Positions 19,848-50,240 of a DNA stretch of 64,000 nt are shown here, piece by piece; position 1 is the stretch's first letter; every line of letters starts with the position of its first letter. The translations under genes were made by a program, and so were the position numbers. The stretch spans positions 32,001-96,000 of IMG/VR virus record IMGVR_UViG_3300013093_000001, one strand, 5' to 3'. The notes under the pieces were generated by a model. The model did no database searches. It had not been told where the DNA came from and worked only from the letters and a program-made list of their open reading frames with translations. The stretch comes from a virus.

Positions 19848-20858
19848 ATGTTCGAACCACCGGAAATAATTTCTGAGCAACTCTACGCTGGACCGGGTGC
19901 TGCTCCGATGTTGACGGCGGCGGCAGGCTGGCAGGGCACTGCGAACAACCTAGCTGGTACAGGTCAAGACTTCGCTCGTATTATCTCCCAAATCCCCTGG
20001 TCGGGACCAAGTTCAGAATCGATGCGCGCAACGGCAGCGTCTTACGCGACGTGGCTATTCGCGACAGCGGAACAAGCCGCGCAGACCGCTGCCTTGGCGC
20101 ACGCCGCCGCAACGGCCTATGAATTAGCACGCGCGACCGCCATACCACCGGAAGCTGTGACATGTAACAGAATGCAACTGGCAATACTGACGGCAACCAA
20201 CATCCTCGGCATGAACTCCGTTGCTATCGCAGCCACAGAATCCCAGTACGCAGAGATGTGGACACAAGATATAGCCGCTATGACAGCCTACAGCGCAACA
20301 TCTGCTGAGCTAACGAGCGCATTACCGAATTGGACTACGCCCCCCGCCGCAACGGCTCCACCATCAGCACCTGCTATTTGGACTTATTTACTCGGAGGTC
20401 AAACAATCCCACAGCTGTTTTGGACTACTTTCCAAGCCAATCTGAGCAGCGGACCATTTTCTTTACCGCTGCAACTCCTCAGCCTGTTTACAGTGCTATG
20501 GGCCACCGGCAGTCCCGACAGCCCTATCAATCAAATACTGGGGCTGGCCCAGAATCCGGTCATTGCGCCGCCAACATACCTAGCAGAGCCGTTGGCGACA
20601 GCGCCAACACCTCAAATACGCGCCAACATGGGCAGCGGCAATACTCTGGGACCGCTGCGGGTGCCTCCGACATGGGCACAACCGCCTAAGCAACTAGTTC
20701 CCCGACCCATTACCGTCAACACAGTGGGATCGGAACTAGAACCCTACCCGTTGGGACTGCCGATACTGACAGGTAGCGGCGGTACGACCACGCGGAAACC
20801 GTTACCCGAATACGGCAAGAGCTCGACCGTGATGGTCAAACACCCATATGGCGGCTAG
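19848..20858 (+). CDS. PPE family protein (SVP-type C-terminus)
   Basis: PPEIIS..YAGPG..M..AA.GW, WSGPSS, NR..L..L.ATN.LG.N..AIAATE.QYAEMWTQD and GPLRVPPTW. Confidence 0.9.
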   Translation: MFEPPEIISEQLYAGPGAAPMLTAAAGWQGTANNLAGTGQDFARIISQIPWSGPSSESMRATAASYATWLFATAEQAAQTAALAHAAATAYELARATAIPPEAVTCNRMQLAILTATNILGMNSVAIAATESQYAEMWTQDIAAMTAYSATSAELTSALPNWTTPPAATAPPSAPAIWTYLLGGQTIPQLFWTTFQANLSSGPFSLPLQLLSLFTVLWATGSPDSPINQILGLAQNPVIAPPTYLAEPLATAPTPQIRANMGSGNTLGPLRVPPTWAQPPKQLVPRPITVNTVGSELEPYPLGLPILTGSGGTTTRKPLPEYGKSSTVMVKHPYGG

Positions 20859-25878: not shown

Positions 25879-26736
25879 CTAGCTGACCTTCCTGGTCGGC
25901 GCTGCTCGCTTAGCTGGCGCTTTCTTAGGCGCAGCCTTCTTAGCTGGTGTCTTACCAGCCGGATGCCGCTTGACGGACGCTTCCAGCTGCGCCATCAAGT
26001 CGGACACGTCGTCGTCGCGCTGGTCCAGATCAACGACGCTGGTCAACACGCCACCCTTAGCTTTCGTGTCAATCAACGCCGCGACCTGCGCGGTGTAGGT
26101 GTCAACGAAGTTGGCGGGACTAAAGTCCTCAATCATGCTGTCAACGACTGCGTGCGCCATTTCCAGCATTTTGGGTGACTCAATGGTCCCGTTTAAATGC
26201 TGCAAACCATTAGCGTCACGGATTTCGTCCAGCCAAATCAGGGTGTGCATGACCAACACGTTGCCAAGGACGCGGATGACAGCCATTTGCTGTCGTGTTC
26301 GCAACACAAACTTTGCGACCGCAACAACATCTGACTCCACCATGACCCGACGCAACAGCGCGTAACCTTGAGAGCTGTTGTCTGTGGGTTCCAAAAAGTA
26401 ACTGGACTCCCACATAATCGGGTCAATCTCGTCACTGTGACAAAACTGGACCACCTCAATGGCCGACAACTTATTGGCTTCCTGCAACTGCGCCAGGTCG
26501 TCATCGGTAATAACGACAATCTTGTCGTCATCAACCAGCTTGCCTTTAATGACTTCGTCAGACCGTGGGTTGACGCCACACTTCTTACACACGCGGGGCT
26601 GACCAATCGCACCCTCGCAACCTGCATGGAACAGGTTAAACGAGATGTCATGGCTGTCCGTTGCCTTGTAGAGTTTGACACCCACATTCACTAAACCGAA
26701 GTTCAGTGACGTGTTTTTCACTGATCTCATACCCAT
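25879..26736 (-). CDS. ku: Ku-like DNA end-binding protein
   Basis: LNFGLVNVGVKLYKAT, YFLEP..YALLR and DLMAQLEASV, plus a Lys/Ala-rich tail. Confidence 0.92.
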   Translation of the reverse strand: MGMRSVKNTSLNFGLVNVGVKLYKATDSHDISFNLFHAGCEGAIGQPRVCKKCGVNPRSDEVIKGKLVDDDKIVVITDDDLAQLQEANKLSAIEVVQFCHSDEIDPIMWESSYFLEPTDNSSQGYALLRRVMVESDVVAVAKFVLRTRQQMAVIRVLGNVLVMHTLIWLDEIRDANGLQHLNGTIESPKMLEMAHAVVDSMIEDFSPANFVDTYTAQVAALIDTKAKGGVLTSVVDLDQRDDDVSDLMAQLEASVKRHPAGKTPAKKAAPKKAPAKRAAPTRKVS

Positions 26737-26776
26737 GTTTTCCTCCTCCACGGCGACCCTTTGCCACCGCTTATTT

Positions 26777-30740: not shown

Positions 30741-31271
30741 TCACGCCGCAAATGCGTCGTACCACACCTTCCGCTTGTCACCACAGCAAGGGCCATAAAA
30801 CCACCCACGCCTATTAACTCTAAGCCGGTGCGCTGTCACGTTACCGTGACAGTAGAAGCAATGCGGGACCAGCTTACCGTCAGCTATCGTAAACTCTAGC
30901 TGCTGCCTCGGCTTATTGTTCCAGCCAACAAAGAACCTAAAAATTCTCAGGTGACTGGTATGACGCATCAAATGCAATGACCTTGCTAGCCTCGCTAACC
31001 GCAGCAGGGCTAAACCACCACCTGCCACGGGCAGTAACGCTGCCACAATGACACAAGCATCAAACACGTTCCAAAAAGACCGGAAGAAAAGCCTGGTAAA
31101 CGCGACACGAAGAGCCAGTTCACACGCAAAGAACAGCAAAACAGCGTTGTCCAGCCGCTCAAGTAATTCAGCGTTCGTGTCATCTACAAGGCTCCACGCC
31201 ACCAGACCAAGGTTGGTTAGAATTGCGACCATCACTACCCGGTCTAGCGGGGAAGACCTGTTGTGCGACAT
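30741..31271 (-). CDS. Ion_trans-like voltage-sensor (S1-S4) protein without a pore domain
   Basis: FFACELALR (S2), WNVFD (S3) and LRLARLARSLHLMR (S4). Confidence 0.8.
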   Translation of the reverse strand: MSHNRSSPLDRVVMVAILTNLGLVAWSLVDDTNAELLERLDNAVLLFFACELALRVAFTRLFFRSFWNVFDACVIVAALLPVAGGGLALLRLARLARSLHLMRHTSHLRIFRFFVGWNNKPRQQLEFTIADGKLVPHCFYCHGNVTAHRLRVNRRGWFYGPCCGDKRKVWYDAFAA

Positions 31272-31327
31272 TTCTCATAAACCTCCTCCTAACATCCCCG
31301 ACCCTGTGTCGGGGAAATCTGTGTGGG

Positions 31328-31444
31328 GAGGCGGCGGCGCAGGTACTGCGCCCGAGCCATGTAACCGGGCAAGGCAATCCTTGCTTCCATTGCCACCAAA
31401 AATGAATGAAAACGGTGGGATGGTGAGTTTAACGCCGCCGCCTC
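31328..31444 (-). ncRNA. Putative structured three-way-junction RNA, copy A
   Basis: Closing stem, TTAAACTCA, stem, AAGCAAGGA, stem, TACCTG; covaries with copies B and C; strand inferred. Confidence 0.6.
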
Positions 31445-31477
31445 AAGCCTCAAAAAGTTTGTGTGGAAAGGTGGTGG

Positions 31478-31598
31478 GGGGGCGGCGGCGCAGGTACTAC
31501 ACGCCCCGTAGTAAAAGGGCGCTTATTGGTAGTCCTTACTTTCCAATTTCCCACCAGCAAGGAACGAGAAATTGGTTGAGCTTAACGCCGCCGCCTCC
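31478..31598 (-). ncRNA. Putative structured three-way-junction RNA, copy B
   Basis: TTAAGCTCA..AAAGTAAGGA..TACCTG core with different stems. Confidence 0.6.
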
Positions 31599-31601
31599 AG
31601 C

Positions 31602-31844
31602 CTATGCTGACCGCCGTGAAGCGGCCATCGTTCGTACCTTGCTGACCACCCAGCGGGTGAATTTTACAAGATAACGAACTGCTGTGACCAAGAACCACGC
31701 GAGGCAAGCGAAAATCAGCAGTTCAGACAACTTGCGATTCTTTCGCATAACGCTCAGTATCACTTCTCCAGCGATTAGCTGGACCGCGTTACTGCTCAGG
31801 TGCTTCGTCAGTTCTTCAAACTGGTTTGGTCGTTCAAGCAACAC
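31602..31844 (-). CDS. Small membrane protein
   Basis: One TM; SD from the element. Confidence 0.5.
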   Translation of the reverse strand: MLLERPNQFEELTKHLSSNAVQLIAGEVILSVMRKNRKLSELLIFACLAWFLVTAVRYLVKFTRWVVSKVRTMAASRRSA

Positions 31845-31917
31845 CTTTCCTCCTCTCCTAAGCTGGCCTTATGCCAGCTTCGTGTCCAGCACGACTTCGA
31901 CATCGTGCTGGACTTCC

Positions 31918-32283
31918 TTACTTGCGGTGACCGTGACCGGCGATGTTGTAATGACCGATATCACCACTTGATGTACCGGGTTGGTCGCTGCGGAACACGG
32001 AGGGACATAAATTCGCCACCGCAATCAACACCGCCTCATCAGCGCGAACCCGCGTCAAATCACTGTTCAGCCACAGGTCATGTGCAATCTTATCGGCAGA
32101 CGCGCCAGCGCCGATCTTACTGCAAATCATGTAACCCAATTGAAGCTGGCCGACAGAACCGCCATCGTTAATAAATCCAGCTTGGGACATGGCGCTTAAA
32201 TAACTACCATCATCCGCGTTCGCGATACCCTGCTGGCTTAACGTGAGCGCCAGAACAGCAGACACCGCTGCCTTTAAGACCAT
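31918..32283 (-). CDS. DUF732 secreted protein
   Basis: ANADD.SYLSAM..AG...G..IC....G..AVANLCP. Confidence 0.8.
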   Translation of the reverse strand: MVLKAAVSAVLALTLSQQGIANADDGSYLSAMSQAGFINDGGSVGQLQLGYMICSKIGAGASADKIAHDLWLNSDLTRVRADEAVLIAVANLCPSVFRSDQPGTSSGDIGHYNIAGHGHRK

Positions 32284-32566
32284 CTTTCCTCCTCCTTGTT
32301 CGGGCTATCTGACTGACAGCCGCCGCACTGGGTGGGATTTTGACATCCCACCCAGTCACCTTACTACGAAAACTTCTTACCTGCCTGCAACCACATCATT
32401 GCTATTACGTCGCATAATTCTGTACGACGCTCTGGCGTGACAGGCGGGTGCTTGGGATTCTCCCACCTCGCCATAATCTGCGCCGCGACCAGCAGCGTTA
32501 AGGGTGTGCGAACCGTTTCCCTGTCTGCTGCCGCCTGGTTCGCGAGCTCAGCCGCGTCTGTTTCGC

Positions 32567-32884
32567 TCACGCCTCAACCCGCTTAATAACGGGGGCACCT
32601 GTTGCCGGATCACGGTGACCTGTCGTCCACCCACTAGGGACCGCCGCCTGGGCATCATCAATAATTCTCTCAATGACACCCCAGCGGATCGTGTCCGCGT
32701 CGATTTCTTCCGGGTCCACCGGCTCGCTAAAATAAAGCTCCCACGACGCTTCAAGCTCTCCGTCTGAGATTGCTAGTATCTCCTGCATCTCTGCGGCATA
32801 CGCGCCACCATCGTTGGCGACCTCATCAACAGCCTGACAGAACAGCATCAAACCCCTGACGTAGTCTTCGTCCATGTCGCTCAT
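32567..32884 (-). CDS. Acidic hypothetical protein
   Basis: ATG after the element SD. Confidence 0.55.
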   Translation of the reverse strand: MSDMDEDYVRGLMLFCQAVDEVANDGGAYAAEMQEILAISDGELEASWELYFSEPVDPEEIDADTIRWGVIERIIDDAQAAVPSGWTTGHRDPATGAPVIKRVEA

Positions 32885-32959
32885 TTCCTCCTCCAATCTG
32901 GTCCGACCCTTGTCGGACTCGTACCCCAGTCAGCTTCGACACTGACTGGGGCCTGCGTG

Positions 32960-33457
32960 TCAGTAAACGCGAAAACCGCCATGCTTCGCAGCGGCCTCTA
33001 AAAACGGGACAAAATCGACTAGCTGTTCTTCAATAGACTGATCTGTGTTGTCGGCGTAAAAATTGCTCGCCAACTCCATTTCAAACAGCTTCAGCGCCGA
33101 CTGGCATTCAACCTTGGTCACCCACCAACCATCATTACCGATGAGCTTGTGGATCGGTATGCCTGGACGCTCATCCCGACTGTCCCGGTAGTAACGATCA
33201 ACAGCTGCAACGAAGTCACGCGCTTCCTGCGTGACAGGCTCCCGCGACCAGCCGTCCTCCGACGTAACCCAGTGGTTGTCGTCTGGACGCTCCGGTACCT
33301 GCCGCCAGTTGTCTTCACCAACCGCCTCAAAGGCCATGTTGCAGCGAAGCAGTGCTAACCGCAGGTTACCTTGGTTCCACATGTTTCTGCGGCAGTAGAA
33401 TTCGTCGCCGTGCAGCGTTTTACCGTCCTCATCACAAACATACATGTCGTATCCCAT
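32960..33457 (-). CDS. Hypothetical protein
   Basis: MGYDMY..GIPIHKL..NDGWWVT..GGFRVY phage motifs. Confidence 0.65.
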   Translation of the reverse strand: MGYDMYVCDEDGKTLHGDEFYCRRNMWNQGNLRLALLRCNMAFEAVGEDNWRQVPERPDDNHWVTSEDGWSREPVTQEARDFVAAVDRYYRDSRDERPGIPIHKLIGNDGWWVTKVECQSALKLFEMELASNFYADNTDQSIEEQLVDFVPFLEAAAKHGGFRVY

Positions 33458-33541
33458 GTTTGCTGCTTCCTCCTCACTATGGTCCGACACCCTGCCGGAC
33501 TCGTACCCCGGCTAGCTATGACACTAGCCGGGGCCACCTAA

Positions 33542-34177
33542 CTACCTTCTTTGCGCTGGGTCAACGTAGCGATCTAACAGTCGCCACCCGAAACCCTCAC
33601 ACGCGAAGGGACGGTCACCGATAATTACTAAATCGCCGACCGACAAACTGCGGTTCCCGTCGTCCCTGTATTTCCTACCCCACGCAAACGCAGGGTTGTC
33701 GCGGTTCAGTTCACCAAAAACTTTCCCCAGTAATCGAAACTCTGGTTCAAATTTCCACTGCAACCGCTCCGGTCCGCGCAACGTGGGAATGAAATCAGGC
33801 TCATCCCAACTGACCGCTAAGACGAGCTGGTCGCCTGGGCGGTGACCGTACATAAAACACTCGGTGTTTTGGTTCAAATAGACCCTCACTTGCCGGTGTC
33901 TCTGTACGCAGTCGGGACAAAGATCGTTACCTACAAGATTTTCGGCTTGTAGCCAACCATCAGTTTGCAACCCTTCCTGTATGACCGCGTCCCGGATTTT
34001 CTCATCTTCAGCGTAGCTATCTACACCCCACACGGCGTGACACTCATCGCATTCGATGAATGTCTCCCGTATTTTGTCTGTCAAGTCCAAGGGAAAATTC
34101 TCCCTCACACAGTCGGGTGGTAGATATGCTGTGCTCACGTCGGGCGGGTAACCCCAAAGCGCATCGCCTCGGGTCAT
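33542..34177 (-). CDS. Hypothetical protein
   Basis: C-terminal RSLSVGDLV..FACEGFGW (YodL-like) motif; start uncertain. Confidence 0.6.
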   Translation of the reverse strand: MTRGDALWGYPPDVSTAYLPPDCVRENFPLDLTDKIRETFIECDECHAVWGVDSYAEDEKIRDAVIQEGLQTDGWLQAENLVGNDLCPDCVQRHRQVRVYLNQNTECFMYGHRPGDQLVLAVSWDEPDFIPTLRGPERLQWKFEPEFRLLGKVFGELNRDNPAFAWGRKYRDDGNRSLSVGDLVIIGDRPFACEGFGWRLLDRYVDPAQRR

Positions 34178-34283
34178 TGCCGCCAACCCTCGTCAGCAGT
34201 CATCTTCTATCCTCCTTTACCAAAGTCCGGCTCCTTGCCGGACTCGCACCCGGTACGGTTCTGACACCGTACCGGGCCTGTGT

Positions 34284-34694
34284 CTAGCCTTCTTTTAGCG
34301 CAGCAACGCGCTCCGCTATGTCACACACCCACTCAACGCCAGGGATGTCGGTACCCAGCTCGTCTTCATCGACGTATGCCATGGAGTTGTCCGGGCTCCC
34401 GGTGTACGCCACCACGGGCCGGTCCACGGACTTACGCCCGAAACCCGTCAGGCCAGCGCACCAAATCGGCTGGTACATTTTCTGCTGACCTATGCGCTCC
34501 TTGCCTGCTTCCAGGCAGGGCGTGCATATGTTGACGACAATGTCCTCGTGGTCAAACGAGTCCCAGAACGTCGCGCCGTAATGACCGTCGGTCCTGAAGA
34601 CATTGGCTTCGTAAGGCTGGTTATCAGCCTCTATGAAGGCGTTTTGTAGTTTCTTACCGCACACGAAGCACGGTAAAAATGCCTCAACAGACAC
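34284..34694 (-). CDS. Hypothetical protein
   Basis: CFVC..GHYGATFWD..NICTPC. Confidence 0.6.
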   Translation of the reverse strand: MSVEAFLPCFVCGKKLQNAFIEADNQPYEANVFRTDGHYGATFWDSFDHEDIVVNICTPCLEAGKERIGQQKMYQPIWCAGLTGFGRKSVDRPVVAYTGSPDNSMAYVDEDELGTDIPGVEWVCDIAERVAALKEG

Positions 34695-35087
34695 GCTTCC
34701 TCCTCTAACGGGTCGGCTGTCTGCCGACCTCGTACCCGGTATGGTGTTGAAACCATACCGGGCCTTTTTACCGCGACGTACAGGCAAGGGCACGACAATC
34801 AGCGCAGTAGGTTTTGCCGTAGGCGCTGATGTACGCAGTCAGCAACGTCAACGGATTGTCGCAATAAAAGCAGTGGATTAGCACTGGTGCTCCTCCTTAT
34901 AACCAAAGTGCGACTCAGGCAGCGTCACGGTCAACTCACCGGCAAGAAAAGCTACGGCCTGTTCGCGACTGAGTCGCATCTTTTGGTACTCCCAAATGTC
35001 GCGCTCGTCGTACTCCATTTCCTCCTCCAATCTGGTCAGCTTCTGCCAACCTCGTACCCCGGCCAGGTTCGACCCTGGCCGGGGCTT

Positions 35088-35447
35088 TCACGCCATCTGT
35101 TTACACGTCCCATCTGCGCTGTGCTTATCCGGCGGCGTCCAGAAGTGTGTCAAACACCCATGTACCGACCTGAGATACCGTTCTACGTCGGGGTGATCTA
35201 ATTCATCTGCCGGGTTGTCGACACGAGAACAAATCTCATTCCACATGACGTCTTCCAACACCGACCCGGTGAATGCGTCTTGGCTCCTACGCCGCTGGTA
35301 ATCATGTACCAGCAACTCGTCGGACAACTCAATGACCTGATCATTGATGTCTTCTCTGACGCAGTCGCTCACCATACCCTGTAGCGGATTAGCACTGGAC
35401 GGTAAACCAAAACCCTCATAGGGTAAAGGCTGCCAATCTCCCTGCAT
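35088..35447 (-). CDS. Hypothetical protein
   Basis: Between elements; SD. Confidence 0.5.
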   Translation of the reverse strand: MQGDWQPLPYEGFGLPSSANPLQGMVSDCVREDINDQVIELSDELLVHDYQRRRSQDAFTGSVLEDVMWNEICSRVDNPADELDHPDVERYLRSVHGCLTHFWTPPDKHSADGTCKQMA

Positions 35448-35523
35448 GTTTCCTCCTCCTAAACGGGCTGGCTTCTGCCAGCCTCGTGTCCGGTGTGGAT
35501 TCGACCCCACACCGGACCGTATG

Positions 35524-35772
35524 TCAATCTATGCCGCGCCACCACCGCATCGTAATGTCCAAGTTCCAGTCTCCAATCTCCCATTGCCACTGATCGCGTG
35601 GCAATTCGGCCACGTTTATTTTCTCATCTTCAAACCTGTCGTCACACCACAGCTGGGCAGCGGCAATCGCCTTCTCCTCAGTTGAGTGAAGAGTGACGGA
35701 GATGTACGGACCCTCTGCATAACACTCGGTGTCAACCAAGCAAATGGTTAGCACCCAGATATCCTGTTCCAT
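35524..35772 (-). CDS. Small hypothetical protein
   Basis: Between elements; SD. Confidence 0.55.
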   Translation of the reverse strand: MEQDIWVLTICLVDTECYAEGPYISVTLHSTEEKAIAAAQLWCDDRFEDEKINVAELPRDQWQWEIGDWNLDITMRWWRGID

Positions 35773-35857
35773 TTTCCTCCTCCAATCTGGTCGGCTTTTT
35801 GCCAACCTCGTACCCACGTCAGGTTCGACCCTGACGTGGGCGCTCAGCGCTAGCTGA

Positions 35858-36298
35858 TCATTGGCGTGCAGCGTAGAACAATTCCACGCATGTGACTTCA
35901 CGGACCGGCTCTACCGTCAGGTAGGCCCAATCGACGAGGTACGCCAATGCGAAGCGCTCTGCGTCCCGCTGCGCCAATTCGCGCGTAGCGGCCTTGCCAT
36001 ACGCAATCAGTTCTCCGTCATCAACGGTCCAAGCCTTTAGCCCTAAGTCCGGTTTGCCGGACAGATGACGAACGTACCAGGACCAGGGCCGGGGCCGCGG
36101 TCCAGGCGACAGCTGCTCAAAAAGCAGATCGGTTGCTGCCGCATCAGCGCTAGGCTGGTCATCGTCGCCTGGTGGGAACACTTGCGCGAGCAATTCAAAA
36201 GCAGTCATGTACTGATCGCCAACTTGACCCCCCGTAACCTCAGCGGTTTCGGGCGTCATGGTTGACCATTCCCACGGTACTTCTATCGTTATTTCCAT
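35858..36298 (-). CDS. Hypothetical protein
   Basis: Between elements. Confidence 0.55.
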   Translation of the reverse strand: MEITIEVPWEWSTMTPETAEVTGGQVGDQYMTAFELLAQVFPPGDDDQPSADAAATDLLFEQLSPGPRPRPWSWYVRHLSGKPDLGLKAWTVDDGELIAYGKAATRELAQRDAERFALAYLVDWAYLTVEPVREVTCVELFYAARQ

Positions 36299-36381
36299 GG
36301 TTGGTACTTTCTCCCTCTAACTGGCTCGGCTTTTTGCCAAGCTCGCGTCCTGGTGTGGTTCGACCCACACCAGGACTCCTT

Positions 36382-36630
36382 TCAGTCCAGGTAACTCGCC
36401 ACCACGTCTTCGAATTCAGCTTCGCAGCAGTCACTCACGTCTTCGTAGTACGTTTCGAAGTCAATGATCGGACTCCAGCTAATTCCTGGGCGTGGACGTT
36501 CATGCTCTAGCGCAATCACGTCACATTCGGTGTTGCACTCTCTGCAAACCTGCGTCAGCGGTGGATTTAAGCGCCTTCGCAGCGCTTCCGCTTCCTGCAT
36601 ACGCATCAAAAAGTCTTTCATGCGTGACAT
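36382..36630 (-). CDS. Small hypothetical protein
   Basis: MSRMKD..CREC..SDCC; between elements. Confidence 0.55.
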   Translation of the reverse strand: MSRMKDFLMRMQEAEALRRRLNPPLTQVCRECNTECDVIALEHERPRPGISWSPIIDFETYYEDVSDCCEAEFEDVVASYLD

Positions 36631-36704
36631 TTTTCCTCCTCCAAGGTGGGCATGGCTATTTGCCACGCCTCGTGCCCCGGCCAGGTTCGACCCTGGCCGG
36701 GGCT

Positions 36705-36900
36705 AGGTGCGACGCAGGTACAGTACGCCAGAGGATAGCTGGCGGTCACTCGGGCCGCATCGCAACATGGCTATGCGCGACCTGAGTGGACTGTCCTTGC
36801 ATTCCCGCTCCAAAGGGAGCAATCTTACCGCCGAGAAATTGGGCACTCGGCCTCTGCGGCAAGCAAAAACCTTCGGGGGGTGAGTTTAACGTCGCTTCCT
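36705..36900 (-). ncRNA. Putative structured three-way-junction RNA, copy C (extended arms)
   Basis: GCGACG-TTAAACTCA..AATGCAAGGA-CAGT..ACTG-TACCTG-CGTCGC; fills a slot between two double-hairpin elements. Confidence 0.65.
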
Positions 36901-36964
36901 CTTTTGTGGTCGGCGTTCTTGCCGACCTCGTGTCCCAGGCAGGTTCGACCCTACCTGGGACTGC

Positions 36965-37213
36965 TCAGGCGCTGATCTTGTCAAACGGGTGCTTAACCCA
37001 ACACCGCTCAGCGTTCATCAACGACCGTTTGCCGTCATCATGGACGACATAGAACCACAATGTTCGCTTTCCCGGGTACATCGCTGACGGCTCCCAATGA
37101 TGGGGTCGGCAACCGGACAGGTCGATGTAGCCTGCACGCAAATCGTAGTCCCAGACCCGCAACCCGTGCGTGATTGGGACTCCATCAAGGGTGCGCTCTG
37201 TCGTCGTTTCCAT
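36965..37213 (-). CDS. Small hypothetical protein
   Basis: DGVPI..GLRVWDYD..WF.V motif; between elements. Confidence 0.6.
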   Translation of the reverse strand: METTTERTLDGVPITHGLRVWDYDLRAGYIDLSGCRPHHWEPSAMYPGKRTLWFYVVHDDGKRSLMNAERCWVKHPFDKISA

Positions 37214-49208: not shown

Positions 49209-50240
49209 ATGAAAATTGGTTCGGTTTTCTCTGGTGGCGGTGGCCTCGACCTGGCGGTAGAGCAGGTATTCAACGGTCGGGTGGTGTGGCAGTCGGAAAT
49301 CGACCGATCTGCGTCTAGGGTTTTGGCAAAGAGGTTTGGTGCACCAAACCTCGGAGATATCACAACCGTCAACTGGGATTTGGTAGAACCAGTGGACGTG
49401 CTGTGCGGTGGGTTTCCCTGCCAGGACGTCAGCGCCGCAGGCAAGCGCGCCGGAATCAAGGACGGCACCCGCTCCGGTCTGTGGGCTGTGTTTGCTGACG
49501 CCATCGACACCCTGCGCCCGCCCATTGTCATCATCGAAAACGTCAGAGGACTGCTCAGTGCCCGAGCCCATCGCAATATGGAACGCGCAGACACAACTCT
49601 GGGAAACGAGTCAGAGCGATTTATTCTCCGAGCAGCAGGAGCCGTACTCGGCGACCTGGCCGACCTCGGGTATGACGCGCAATGGACAACTATTGCCGCT
49701 GGCGATGTCGGGGCACCGCACAGGCGAGAACGAGTCTTTGTTGTTGCCTACGCCGGATACGGGAATGACTCCAAACGGTCACGGTCGGCGTGGCGGCACG
49801 AAGGGCAACGGTCACCAGTCAAGCAATTCGCTGGATTCAGAAGTTATGGACATGTAGAGCTGCTGCCGACGCCCAACGCCAGCGATGCATCCGGTGGCGG
49901 TGCCCACCCCGACAAACGAGAAGGACATTCCCGCCAACTCATCGACTACGCGCTGCTCAACAACACCACGGCCTGGGGCAAGTACGCTCCCGCCATCCGA
50001 CGCTGGGAATCCCTGACCCGTCCTGCCCCGGTGCCCACAGAGTTGACCAAGAACGGAAATCCCCGACTCAACGCGGCGTTTTCCGAATGGCTGATGGGCT
50101 GGCCTGCCGGGTGGGTCACCGACCCGGCCATCGGTATCAGCCGCAACGACCAGTTACGCATTCTCGGTAATGGAGTCGTTGTTCAGCAGGCAATTGCTGC
50201 GCTCAACTACCTGCTGCTCACACAAAACATAACGCTGTGA
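49209..50240 (+). CDS. DNA cytosine-5 methyltransferase
   Basis: FSGGGG, GFPCQDVS, ENV, RRERVF and LGNGVV motifs. Confidence 0.92.
   Translation: MKIGSVFSGGGGLDLAVEQVFNGRVVWQSEIDRSASRVLAKRFGAPNLGDITTVNWDLVEPVDVLCGGFPCQDVSAAGKRAGIKDGTRSGLWAVFADAIDTLRPPIVIIENVRGLLSARAHRNMERADTTLGNESERFILRAAGAVLGDLADLGYDAQWTTIAAGDVGAPHRRERVFVVAYAGYGNDSKRSRSAWRHEGQRSPVKQFAGFRSYGHVELLPTPNASDASGGGAHPDKREGHSRQLIDYALLNNTTAWGKYAPAIRRWESLTRPAPVPTELTKNGNPRLNAAFSEWLMGWPAGWVTDPAIGISRNDQLRILGNGVVVQQAIAALNYLLLTQNITL
49558..49857 (+). CDS. Out-of-frame overlapping ORF inside the methylase (beta-subunit-like)
   Basis: SD AGAGGA before GTG 49558; YSATWPTSGMTRNG..SLLLPTP motif. Confidence 0.5.
   Translation: MPEPIAIWNAQTQLWETSQSDLFSEQQEPYSATWPTSGMTRNGQLLPLAMSGHRTGENESLLLPTPDTGMTPNGHGRRGGTKGNGHQSSNSLDSEVMDM

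Follow-up and report, generated by a model that had tools for sequence, protein, structure and literature searches.

A structured RNA domain with a three-way-junction core and freely varying arms, present in three copies in an uncultivated phage genome

The DNA analysed here (the window) is a stretch of 64,000 nucleotides, positions 32,001 to 96,000 of IMG/VR record IMGVR_UViG_3300013093_000001, from a phage genome of 113,905 bp (~114 kb) with direct terminal repeats. The phage TerL has 56% identity to Mycobacterium phage TerLs and, together with PPE, Ku and DUF732 genes, indicates a mycobacterial host; no relatives of this TerL were found in a genome-contig search. The first-pass annotation had placed three copies of a repeated RNA motif in this region; all three were recovered on the minus strand, and for copies A, B and C this is the mRNA-sense strand (Table 1). 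The flanking genes all lie on the same strand as the copies, and from sequence A, B and C are predicted to be transcribed within a long leftward operon. About 44 simple double-hairpin elements are distributed along the same operon.

Copies B and A are tandem, with B upstream of A in the RNA sense, and the pair occupies the position held by the large first hairpin at other gene junctions. The closing helix (P1) of copy B begins 3 nt past the stop codon of the 80-aa gene. The protein encoded downstream of the pair matches PF00520 (Ion_trans) at E 4.9e-13 over profile positions 3–118 of 241, i.e., the S1–S4 part only, and ends in a short Cys-rich tail; its closest homologue, in an Actinomycetota MAG, directly follows Ku and is without the motif, and no viral relatives of the voltage-sensor protein or of Ku were found. 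Copy C alone fills a whole gene slot between two double-hairpin elements, an arrangement which, like the tandem pair, had been noticed earlier and was seen again here; the spacing between B and A is 34 nt. The double-hairpin element 5' of C carries just AAAAGAGGAAG, as against GGAGGAGG in other slots, and AAAAGAGGAAG runs into P1 of copy C.

Table 1. Positions within the window of copies A, B and C, their parts, and neighbouring genes and hairpins. P, helix; J, junction strand.
Feature	Position	Strand	Length or sequence	Basis or remark
Voltage-sensor gene downstream of B-A	30741..31271	-	176 aa	Pfam PF00520
Shine-Dalgarno	31282-31289	-	GGAGGAGG	followed by start codon of voltage-sensor gene
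RBS-proximal single hairpin 3' of A	31296..31314	-		sequence reading
Copy A	31328..31444	-	117 nt	MFE fold; seed of model R1
Copy A, P1 3' strand	31328-31340	-		
Copy A, P3	31341-31381	-		base AGGA+UUGC paired with GCAG+U-[A]-CCU
Copy A, J2/3	31382-31386	-	AAGCA	
Copy A, P2 hairpin	31387-31423	-		
Copy A, J1/2	31424-31431	-	UAAACUCA	
Copy A, P1 5' strand	31432-31444	-		last nt is the U of the U.G pair
B-A spacer	31445..31478	-	34 nt	C/A-rich, without hairpin; sequence reading
Copy B	31479..31597	-	119 nt	fold z-score; R1 match
Gene upstream of B	31602..31844	-	80 aa	one hydrophobic segment; without family match
Gene after C slot	36382-36633	-		preceded by Shine-Dalgarno; 3' of the 36649-36702 element
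Double-hairpin element 3' of C	36649..36702	-		sequence reading
Copy C	36704..36901	-	198 nt	MFE fold; R1 and R2 matches
Copy C, core segment	36713-36721	-	GUACCUGCG	
Copy C, J1/2	36881-36888	-	UAAACUCA	
Double-hairpin element 5' of C	36908..36959	-		sequence reading

MFE folds of the minus strand gave an identical three-way junction in A, B and C (−57.2 kcal/mol for copy A), and the fold z-scores compared with shuffled sequences were −5.2 for A, −6.4 for B and −3.0 for C. P1 is a closing helix of 12–13 bp, nearly all G-C, with an invariant U.G pair at its end; its stability was −29.7 kcal/mol in A, −28.8 in B, and −30.3 in copy D from a related phage (described below). The J1/2 strand has 8 nt, UAARCUCA, in A, B and C, and reads U-AA--UCA, counting the U of the U.G pair, when D is added. 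P2 opens with CC/GG, J2/3 is A-rich (5–6 nt), and P3 begins with a box, WGGA/U(N)CCW, carrying a bulged base. The first-pass annotation had correctly drawn a three-way junction and had taken AAGGA and UACCU as junction strands; these pair with each other, with one A bulged, and the resulting helix is the conserved base of P3; the junction had therefore been drawn too large. With this pairing P3 is stacked directly on P1, J3/1 has 0 nt, and J2/3 is only AAGYA.

Copy B has the P1 sequence of copy A, J1/2 of UAAGCUCA, J2/3 of AAAGUA, and a P3 base of AGGA+CUAC/GUAG+U-[A]-CCU; P2 and distal P3 have no sequence relation between the two copies. Copy C shares the core of A and B, with a weaker P1 (6+3 bp), a long P2, and a P3 divided into two hairpins. 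The arms vary freely in sequence, in length and even in how they branch: reading of the folds turned up neither a conserved element nor a fixed length in them, and no consistent loop-flank or loop-junction pairing was seen in the folds of the copies. The conserved core amounts to ~16–23 nt (~20 positions) in an element whose size is ~110–200 nt across members.

The pair of strings GTTAARCTCA and GTACCTGCG, with a gap of 40–200 nt, occurred 3 times in the whole genome, always on the minus strand, and 0 times in the backwards-read control; either short string singly was no more frequent than chance, and specificity lies in their combination. A covariance model seeded on copy A alone (R1) found B (E 1.4e-9) and C (E 1e-3) in the 114-kb genome, where its remaining matches were all plain hairpins, none of them junction-shaped; model R2 scored copy A at 120 bits and copy C at 60 bits. 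The MAFFT alignment had a mean column identity of 59%, with copy C misplaced and the interiors unalignable by sequence. When A, B and C were aligned under guidance of the model, 94% of cells paired, compared with 37–52% when the partners were slid, and both-side changes were present in 15 of 39 pairs, a level reached by 0 of 500 shuffles; with D included, 92% of cells paired (38–48% in slid controls) and both-side changes rose to 22 of the 39. The earlier description of an invariant junction core with free, covarying arms is supported by the shared fold, the R1 matches and this level of pairing, and the covarying blocks it named (UUGC/GCAG, CUAC/GUAG and CAGU/ACUG) are real. The model pairs contained 10 G.U versus 2 A.C, an asymmetry favouring the mRNA-sense strand and supporting an assignment formerly made from context. 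The covariation evidence is strong; the family is tiny, and comes from two uncultivated phages so far. Copies A, B and C are paralogous, and the structured RNA domain that they represent had not been described before.

The search of Rfam and of phages with covariance models, which the first-pass annotation had proposed, was run and yielded no Rfam 15 match and one further copy, D, in a related 97-kb phage contig. D is probably a fourth member of the family; its P1 differs in sequence and is fully paired, and the core is partly retained. It was found by a filters-off model search of relative G001, which with G159 makes up the two largest relatives, the ones searched in this way; G159 gave plain hairpins only (≤25 bits). 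D also begins 3 nt past a stop codon, and A and D both lie just upstream of a ribosome-binding site. An HNH gene lies downstream of D, and its G000 homologue is without the motif upstream; the genes on either side of B-A, of C and of D showed no homology between loci. A structural descriptor scan of 826 kb from 16 related phage contigs returned only A–D, with 0 matches in reversed-sequence controls. The model search had no match in 14 viral records of relatives or in 4 genomes of Mycobacterium phages or prophages; because the relatives' model search also missed D, it is to be taken as a lossy first pass. Within IMG/VR, the strict three-block pattern gave 0 matches and the loose pattern >107, of which 0 of 80 loci among the matches listed passed R2; the A+B+D consensus gave 32 matches, with a long P1 in D alone. 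Of 3 matches from a metagenome pattern scan, 0 passed R2. There was no match by blastn against GenBank phages, and the element was not found, under stricter filters, in 151 genomes of a Nocardia isolate's family plus 3 others; a literature search on the junction strings returned unrelated oligonucleotides only. Rfam 15 gave 0 matches to the whole window at the gathering threshold, only chance-level matches of unrelated families to 31200–37000 with E relaxed to 10 (CcsR1 at E 1.5, and PtaRNA1, which falls on a double hairpin), and no match to the region around D. The element matches no known RNA family in Rfam 15; the misfit to hammerhead, twister, pistol, hatchet and HDV noted in the first-pass annotation is borne out. 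Four members in two uncultivated phages make for a thin consensus.

The reading that we tentatively prefer is that the element is an autonomous RNA module recognised, via its core, by a putative protein. The rigid junction and the irregular helix, with its U.G pair and bulge, would together form a specific recognition surface, and the binder would most likely be a host or phage protein; no RNA-binding gene was linked to any copy. Copy C, and probably B-A, may be released from the polycistronic RNA, or persist in it, as stable non-coding RNAs that could titrate, recruit or guide the bound factor, whether by acting as a decoy or sponge or by marking the RNA for processing or decay. An invariant U.G by a conserved short bulged helix at a junction is a typical feature of protein recognition, as in the 16S rRNA site bound by S15 and the Ro-binding site of Y RNAs, and stable non-coding RNAs typically have a long closing stem. 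Since the element has a GC closing helix, an invariant U.G by a bulged helix, and arms without a conserved element, a protein-recognised module would fit this anatomy at least as well as the earlier description "ribozyme-like". Autonomy is supported by the placement of C in its own slot between double-hairpin elements; the unrelated flanking genes across loci, and the voltage-sensor and HNH homologues without the motif, are also counted in its favour. Metabolite sensing via P1 opening is not part of the role proposed, since P1, at about −29 kcal/mol, is too stable for switching. A purely cis-acting intercistronic role would also fit, with B and D 3 nt past a stop codon and A and D before a ribosome-binding site. 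As to targets in trans, the genome outside the copies showed no complementarity to the arms of at least 13 nt beyond chance; the GGC-repeat matches (genome positions 99311 and 102662) fall in coding stretches rich in Gly/Ala.

A conserved junction with free arms is equally typical of small ribozymes. We regard it as doubtful, though worth considering, that the core is the active site or pocket of a new RNA class, either a self-cleaving ribozyme or an aptamer or "RNA sponge" for a small molecule or ion, which mycobacteriophage-like viruses would carry as stand-alone cassettes within their early operon. The catalytic form of this idea, in which a new small self-cleaving or otherwise catalytic ribozyme would use the junction as active site and the arms as scaffold and would cut the polycistronic RNA, is in our judgement unlikely. 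A three-way junction with ~16–23 conserved core nucleotides and free arms follows the design logic of the hammerhead, several diverged copies (two of them tandem) are present in one phage genome, and small ribozymes are frequent in phage-like DNA. Against this, no Rfam ribozyme model matched even at E 10, the CUGANGA/GAAA core is lacking, and so is the conserved loop-loop or pseudoknot contact which most natural small ribozymes need; a GC-rich P1 of 12–13 bp would keep the cleavage products joined, and the operon is already punctuated by the simple double-hairpin elements.

Quite unlikely as well is a block to exoribonucleases or stabiliser of mRNA, a bacterial counterpart of xrRNA, that would halt RNase J in the 5'→3' direction or PNPase in the 3'→5' direction, thereby shielding the neighbouring cistron or leaving a stable decay product. 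Tandem three-way junctions in an untranslated gap recall flavivirus xrRNAs, which also stop bacterial RNase J1 (PMC8374639), and B-A stands directly after a stop codon in place of the large first hairpin. However, for the pseudoknots that define xrRNAs (5' flank with junction, loop with 3' flank) no complementarity kept in all copies was seen on reading the folds; simple hairpins serve the other junctions, making a sequence-specific core unneeded; and C has no gene of its own to protect.

A ligand-sensing tandem aptamer (riboswitch) controlling the gene that follows A and encodes the voltage-sensor-like membrane protein is improbable. It would draw on the tandem pair in a 330-nt leader before an Ion_trans-family gene, on a conserved junction that could form a pocket, and on C-rich sequence past P1 that could in principle pair with the Shine-Dalgarno GGAGGAGG; yet the strength of P1 makes P1 switching implausible, C is without its own gene and is separated from the next one by a full double-hairpin element, an unrelated HNH gene follows D, a voltage-sensor homologue elsewhere lacks the motif, and no known aptamer family matched. 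A DNA-level element is very improbable, whether as an ssDNA or cruciform signal that serves replication, recombination or packaging, or as a small mobile element bounded by terminal inverted repeats: the closing stem does resemble inverted repeats, the copies are dispersed, and GTTAAAC/GTTAAGC happens to fit the integron GTTRRRY core, but the interiors are unrelated in sequence and keep their pairing by compensatory changes where copies of mobile elements are near-identical, the G.U excess favours one strand (mRNA sense), the other end has no RYYYAAC partner box and no target-site duplication was seen, and the regions for replication and packaging do not contain the motif.

That three copies of the junction are kept while the rest drifts, and that one has a gene slot of its own, argues for a selected RNA-level function independent of the neighbours. 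We know of very few structured non-coding RNAs described from actinobacteriophages, and of none with this architecture. If the core binds a host factor, the element would be an RNA-based means by which a phage manipulates RNA metabolism or defence in mycobacteria; a catalytic or ligand-binding core would make it a new class of ribozyme or aptamer. At ~110 nt with ~20 conserved positions, the element is small enough for direct biochemistry.

Among known systems, the hammerhead is a similar-sized three-way junction in which only junction nucleotides are conserved and the arms vary; its core strands (CUGANGA, GAAA, UH) are absent from the element, which has UAARCUCA and AAGYA and no J3/1, and no Rfam hammerhead model matched the element, whether at the gathering threshold or with E relaxed to 10. 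Twister, twister-sister, pistol, hatchet, HDV-like, hairpin, VS and glmS models gave no match by cmscan (window at the gathering threshold, 31200–37000 at E up to 10). Slippery-site and CCA-tail ideas were rejected from sequence reading, and ARAGORN found 0 tRNA or tmRNA genes and no cloverleaf in the window. Integron attC sites fit on the 5' side only, the 3' side reading GTACCTGCG, and a MITE-like element was rejected on the unalignable, paired interiors and the absence of visible end duplications. Flavivirus xrRNA shares with the element the three-way junction, a conserved core and frequent tandem placement in a viral untranslated region, and differs by two pseudoknots ringing the 5' end; manual inspection of flanks and loops found no such pseudoknot kept in all of A–D, and the element lies in a DNA phage operon and has no sequence similarity to xrRNA. 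The purine-type and tandem glycine riboswitches likewise have a P1-P2-P3 junction core or tandem placement in a leader; the element shows no loop-loop docking, its P1 is much too stable to switch, one copy is geneless, and no riboswitch class or aptamer model matched. A generic riboswitch was rejected on the stability of P1, which in A, B and D is −29 to −30 kcal/mol, the unrelated downstream genes and the complete double hairpin after C. The phi29 pRNA is also a phage RNA (~117–174 nt) built on a three-way junction whose sequence diverges while the fold stays, but it is not known outside podoviruses of the phi29 type, depends on conserved loop-loop contacts and maps close to a genome end, whereas the element has three copies in an early-type operon and no Rfam match. 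YrlA, bound by Ro60/Rsr, is a non-coding RNA with a long closing stem and a conserved irregular protein-binding helix, as is proposed for the element. Y RNAs (YrlA) are known from mycobacteriophages (PMC4201824); this identity was rejected, as TROVE/Ro (PF05731) is absent from the whole phage genome (control genomes match), there is no tRNA-like domain, and Rfam gave no match. The S15-binding site in 16S rRNA, like its mimics in mRNA, resembles the element in design alone: S15 reads a three-way junction together with a G.U/G-C motif in the adjoining helix, and the element has no link to rpsO.

The three copies (A, B and C) of the three-way-junction motif were located by reading the sequence, at the positions that the first-pass annotation had given them and all on the minus strand; the same three-way junction was returned by the fold, by a covariance model and by alignment, confirming and sharpening the earlier description. 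Each of the two 10-nt core strings taken alone was no more frequent than expected by chance. The whole genome has 3 occurrences of the two strings with a gap of 40-200 nt between them, each on the minus strand; the pattern run backwards gave 0. The minus-strand RNA folded much more stably than its shuffles (z -5.2 for A, -6.4 for B and -3.0 for C), and the minimum-free-energy folds of the three copies showed an identical junction. R1, a covariance model with A as its only sequence, detected B (E 1.4e-9) and C (E 1e-3), its remaining matches in the window being plain GC-rich hairpins; pattern and model searches of the whole genome gave no further copy. When A, B and C were aligned with the model as guide, standard pairs made up 94% of cells, compared with 37-52% after the partners were slid; fitting to the structure biases such an alignment towards pairing, but the gap is still large. 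Both sides had changed in 15 of the 39 pairs, a level reached by 0 of 500 shuffles. The RNA strand, assigned earlier from context, is favoured as minus by 10 G.U against 2 A.C among the model pairs and by the better z-scores, and the neighbouring genes are all read in this same sense.

Positions of the motif copies, of the candidate fourth copy, and of genes and minor sites mentioned in the text
Feature	Position	Strand	Basis or remarks
Copy A	window 31328-31444	-	sequence reading
Copy B	window 31479-31597	-	sequence reading
Copy C	window 36704-36901	-	sequence reading
Candidate D	L128:19855-19975, in IMGVR_UViG_3300046533_000211 (97 kb)		R2 (covariance model from A, B, C), Infernal filters off: 31 bits, E 9e-5
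176-aa protein	window 30741-31271	-	S1-S4 (voltage-sensor) half of Ion_trans profile only; Cys-rich tail, no pore domain
PPE-family protein	window 19848-20858	+	PF00823, E 3e-47; PPE-SVP C-terminal region
Ku70/80 beta-barrel protein	window 25879-26751	-	PF02735, E 1e-39; phage has short direct terminal repeats
C-5 cytosine DNA methyltransferase	window 49209-50240	+	PF00145, E 6e-40
Small hairpin after A	window 31296-31314	-
Small hairpin before C	window 36908-36927	-
Promoter-like site	window 31661-31690	-	TGGTCA-N18-TAAAAT

The anatomy of the RNA differs in one respect from that first proposed: AAGGA and UACCU, taken then as junction strands, are paired to each other in both the minimum-free-energy folds and the model. 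They form the conserved base of P3 (A-U, G-C, G-C, a bulged A, A-U), which is followed by four covarying pairs; the 4-bp covarying blocks remarked upon earlier are these variable pairs and are real. P1 in A and B (GGCGGCGGCG) has 12-13 bp and ends in an invariant U.G pair. In all three copies J1/2 is UAARCUCA, P2 begins with CC/GG but is free beyond that, and P3 is made up of the AGGA box, the 4 variable pairs and a free distal part (two hairpins in C); J2/3 occurs as AAGCA, AAAGUA and AAUGCA. Since the 3' strand of P1 adjoins P3 with no linker, P3 would be expected to stack on P1 in this model.

Related viral contigs were found via TerL (11, then 43), and 15 of the relatives (~712 kb) were retrieved in full. 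Candidate D lies in a contig whose TerL has 61% identity; its bit score alone is modest, as 25 bits is reached in another relative by a plain hairpin whose stem resembles P1. P1 of D is perfect over 13-14 bp and unlike that of A-C in sequence (GCCGCAGGGGCG/CGCCCCUGCGGC), with the U.G closure retained. J1/2, counted with the U of that pair, reads UGAACGUCA and retains U-AA--UCA, P2 opens with CCG/CGG, and J2/3 is AUCGA. At the base of P3, UGGA-U-GGAC is paired with GUCC-U-CC-CCA; compared with A-C the first pair is changed from A-U to U-A, GG/CC is the same, and the bulge is CC in place of A. The 712 kb of relatives contain 548 long-range helices that have 12 bp or more and end in U.G, and U-AA--UCA came next only in D, in which the WGGA/U(N)CCW box and the P2 opening are present too. 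With these features all combined, a descriptor matched exactly A, B, C and D, with 0 matches in reversed-sequence controls, a result that is partly circular because the descriptor was loosened once D was known. In the A-D alignment 92% of cells pair (38-48% in slid controls), with both-side changes in 22 of 39 pairs. We consider D a probable member of the family.

The covariance-model search of Rfam that had been proposed was run against Rfam 15 and matched no known family, whether for the whole window at the gathering threshold, the A-C region at E up to 10, or the surroundings of D; ARAGORN found nothing. Pattern scans of IMG/VR and metagenomes returned chance matches only, save D, and blastn against GenBank phages returned no match. 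Nor was there a match in 4 Mycobacterium phage or prophage genomes, 3 cellular genomes and 151 genomes of a Nocardia isolate's family, searched with filters that also missed D. The family so far consists of four elements in two uncultivated phages; it is a new, well-supported and very small RNA family, which can be classed with small three-way-junction RNA domains in general and fits none of the known families.

The virus record that carries the window (bases 32001-96000) is 113,905 bp long, has direct terminal repeats (exact, 123 bp) and is rated complete. Its large terminase has 56% identity to those of the Mycobacterium phages Nadezda, Typha and Bipper; this likeness, together with genes for a PPE-family protein, Ku, a DUF732 protein and a C5 methylase, makes it very probable that the host is a Mycobacterium-type actinobacterium. 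The PPE family is not known from outside mycobacteria, so the PPE gene is a strong host clue. From ~22 to 43 kb in the window every gene is on the minus strand, each with a GGAGGAGG ribosome-binding site and most with a two-hairpin (double-hairpin) element between them.

Within this operon, B begins 3 nt past the stop codon of an 80-aa gene (one hydrophobic segment) and A lies 34 nt after B, in tandem as previously described; 3' of A there follow one small hairpin, a ribosome-binding site and the 176-aa voltage-sensor gene. The closest homologues of that protein are short (116-133 aa), and the gene for one of them, in an Actinomycetota MAG, immediately follows a Ku gene; in the present phage, too, Ku is ~5 kb from the voltage-sensor gene. 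C is isolated and has, as had been noted, a double-hairpin element on either side, both complete; the ribosome-binding site of the upstream element is degraded and continues into P1 of C. D begins 3-4 nt past a stop codon and ends 13 nt ahead of the ribosome-binding site of a gene for an HNH endonuclease (146 aa), with no double-hairpin elements around it. The proteins flanking the three loci are unrelated, no motif stands upstream of the HNH homologue in the present phage (genome 28348-28944, outside the window), and among cellular homologues of the voltage-sensor gene the closest one, directly after Ku, has no motif; there is thus no fixed link between the element and any one gene, or between it and the double-hairpin system.

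Some further features were seen around the copies. The HNH gene downstream of D is free-standing (G001:40000-40440, in D's contig). B and D have a like short spacer after the stop codon (UAG-GCU, window 31602-31604 with 31598; UGA-GCC, G001:39848-39857), and a terminating ribosome would need to melt the 5' strand of P1 at both. The small hairpin proximal to the ribosome-binding site in double-hairpin elements is solitary after A and stands before C with a degraded Shine-Dalgarno (AAAAGAGGAAG); its presence is thus not coupled to translation initiation. A promoter-like site, of a type no commoner than chance in the region, lies ~60 nt 5' of B in an AT-rich patch within the 3' end of the 80-aa gene; it could provide B-A and the voltage-sensor gene with a transcript of their own.

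The motif is a conserved, strand-specific RNA fold in which the selected part is the junction core. An autonomous RNA module recognised by a protein is ranked first, tentatively and at somewhat under an even chance, because of the distinctive core, the slot of its own and the several diverged copies; the core combines a very stable closing helix, the invariant U.G, a stacked, conserved 4-bp box with a bulged base, and A-rich junction strands. The earlier 'ribozyme-like' reading is possible, in that a conserved junction with free arms is compatible with it, but a ribozyme is unlikely: a known core is absent, the arms lack any conserved tertiary contact, and a P1 of such length would keep the products together. 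Slightly less likely again is a block to exonucleases like that of xrRNA, which has the three-way junction and tandem arrangement in common with the motif (PMC8374639), whereas the two conserved pseudoknots that define the xrRNA fold were not found. We think an aptamer more doubtful than either. A riboswitch that acts by switching P1 is unlikely: P1 has a stability of ~-29 kcal/mol in A, B and D, one of the copies lacks any gene that it could regulate, and different genes lie downstream of the others. That the motif works as a DNA-level element is very improbable. Roles as a Y RNA or a guide RNA found no support, since the phage has no Ro/TROVE gene and complementarity of the arms to the rest of the genome was at chance level.

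A protein-recognised module with its own slot and several diverged copies would act as an RNA product, not as a switch; it may be a stable decoy or sponge, or it could be a signal that a processing or decay factor recognises. Surfaces of such a type are read by proteins, e.g., at the S15 site of 16S rRNA and the Ro site of Y RNAs, and by analogy the motif core may present the same kind of protein-read surface as these two sites.
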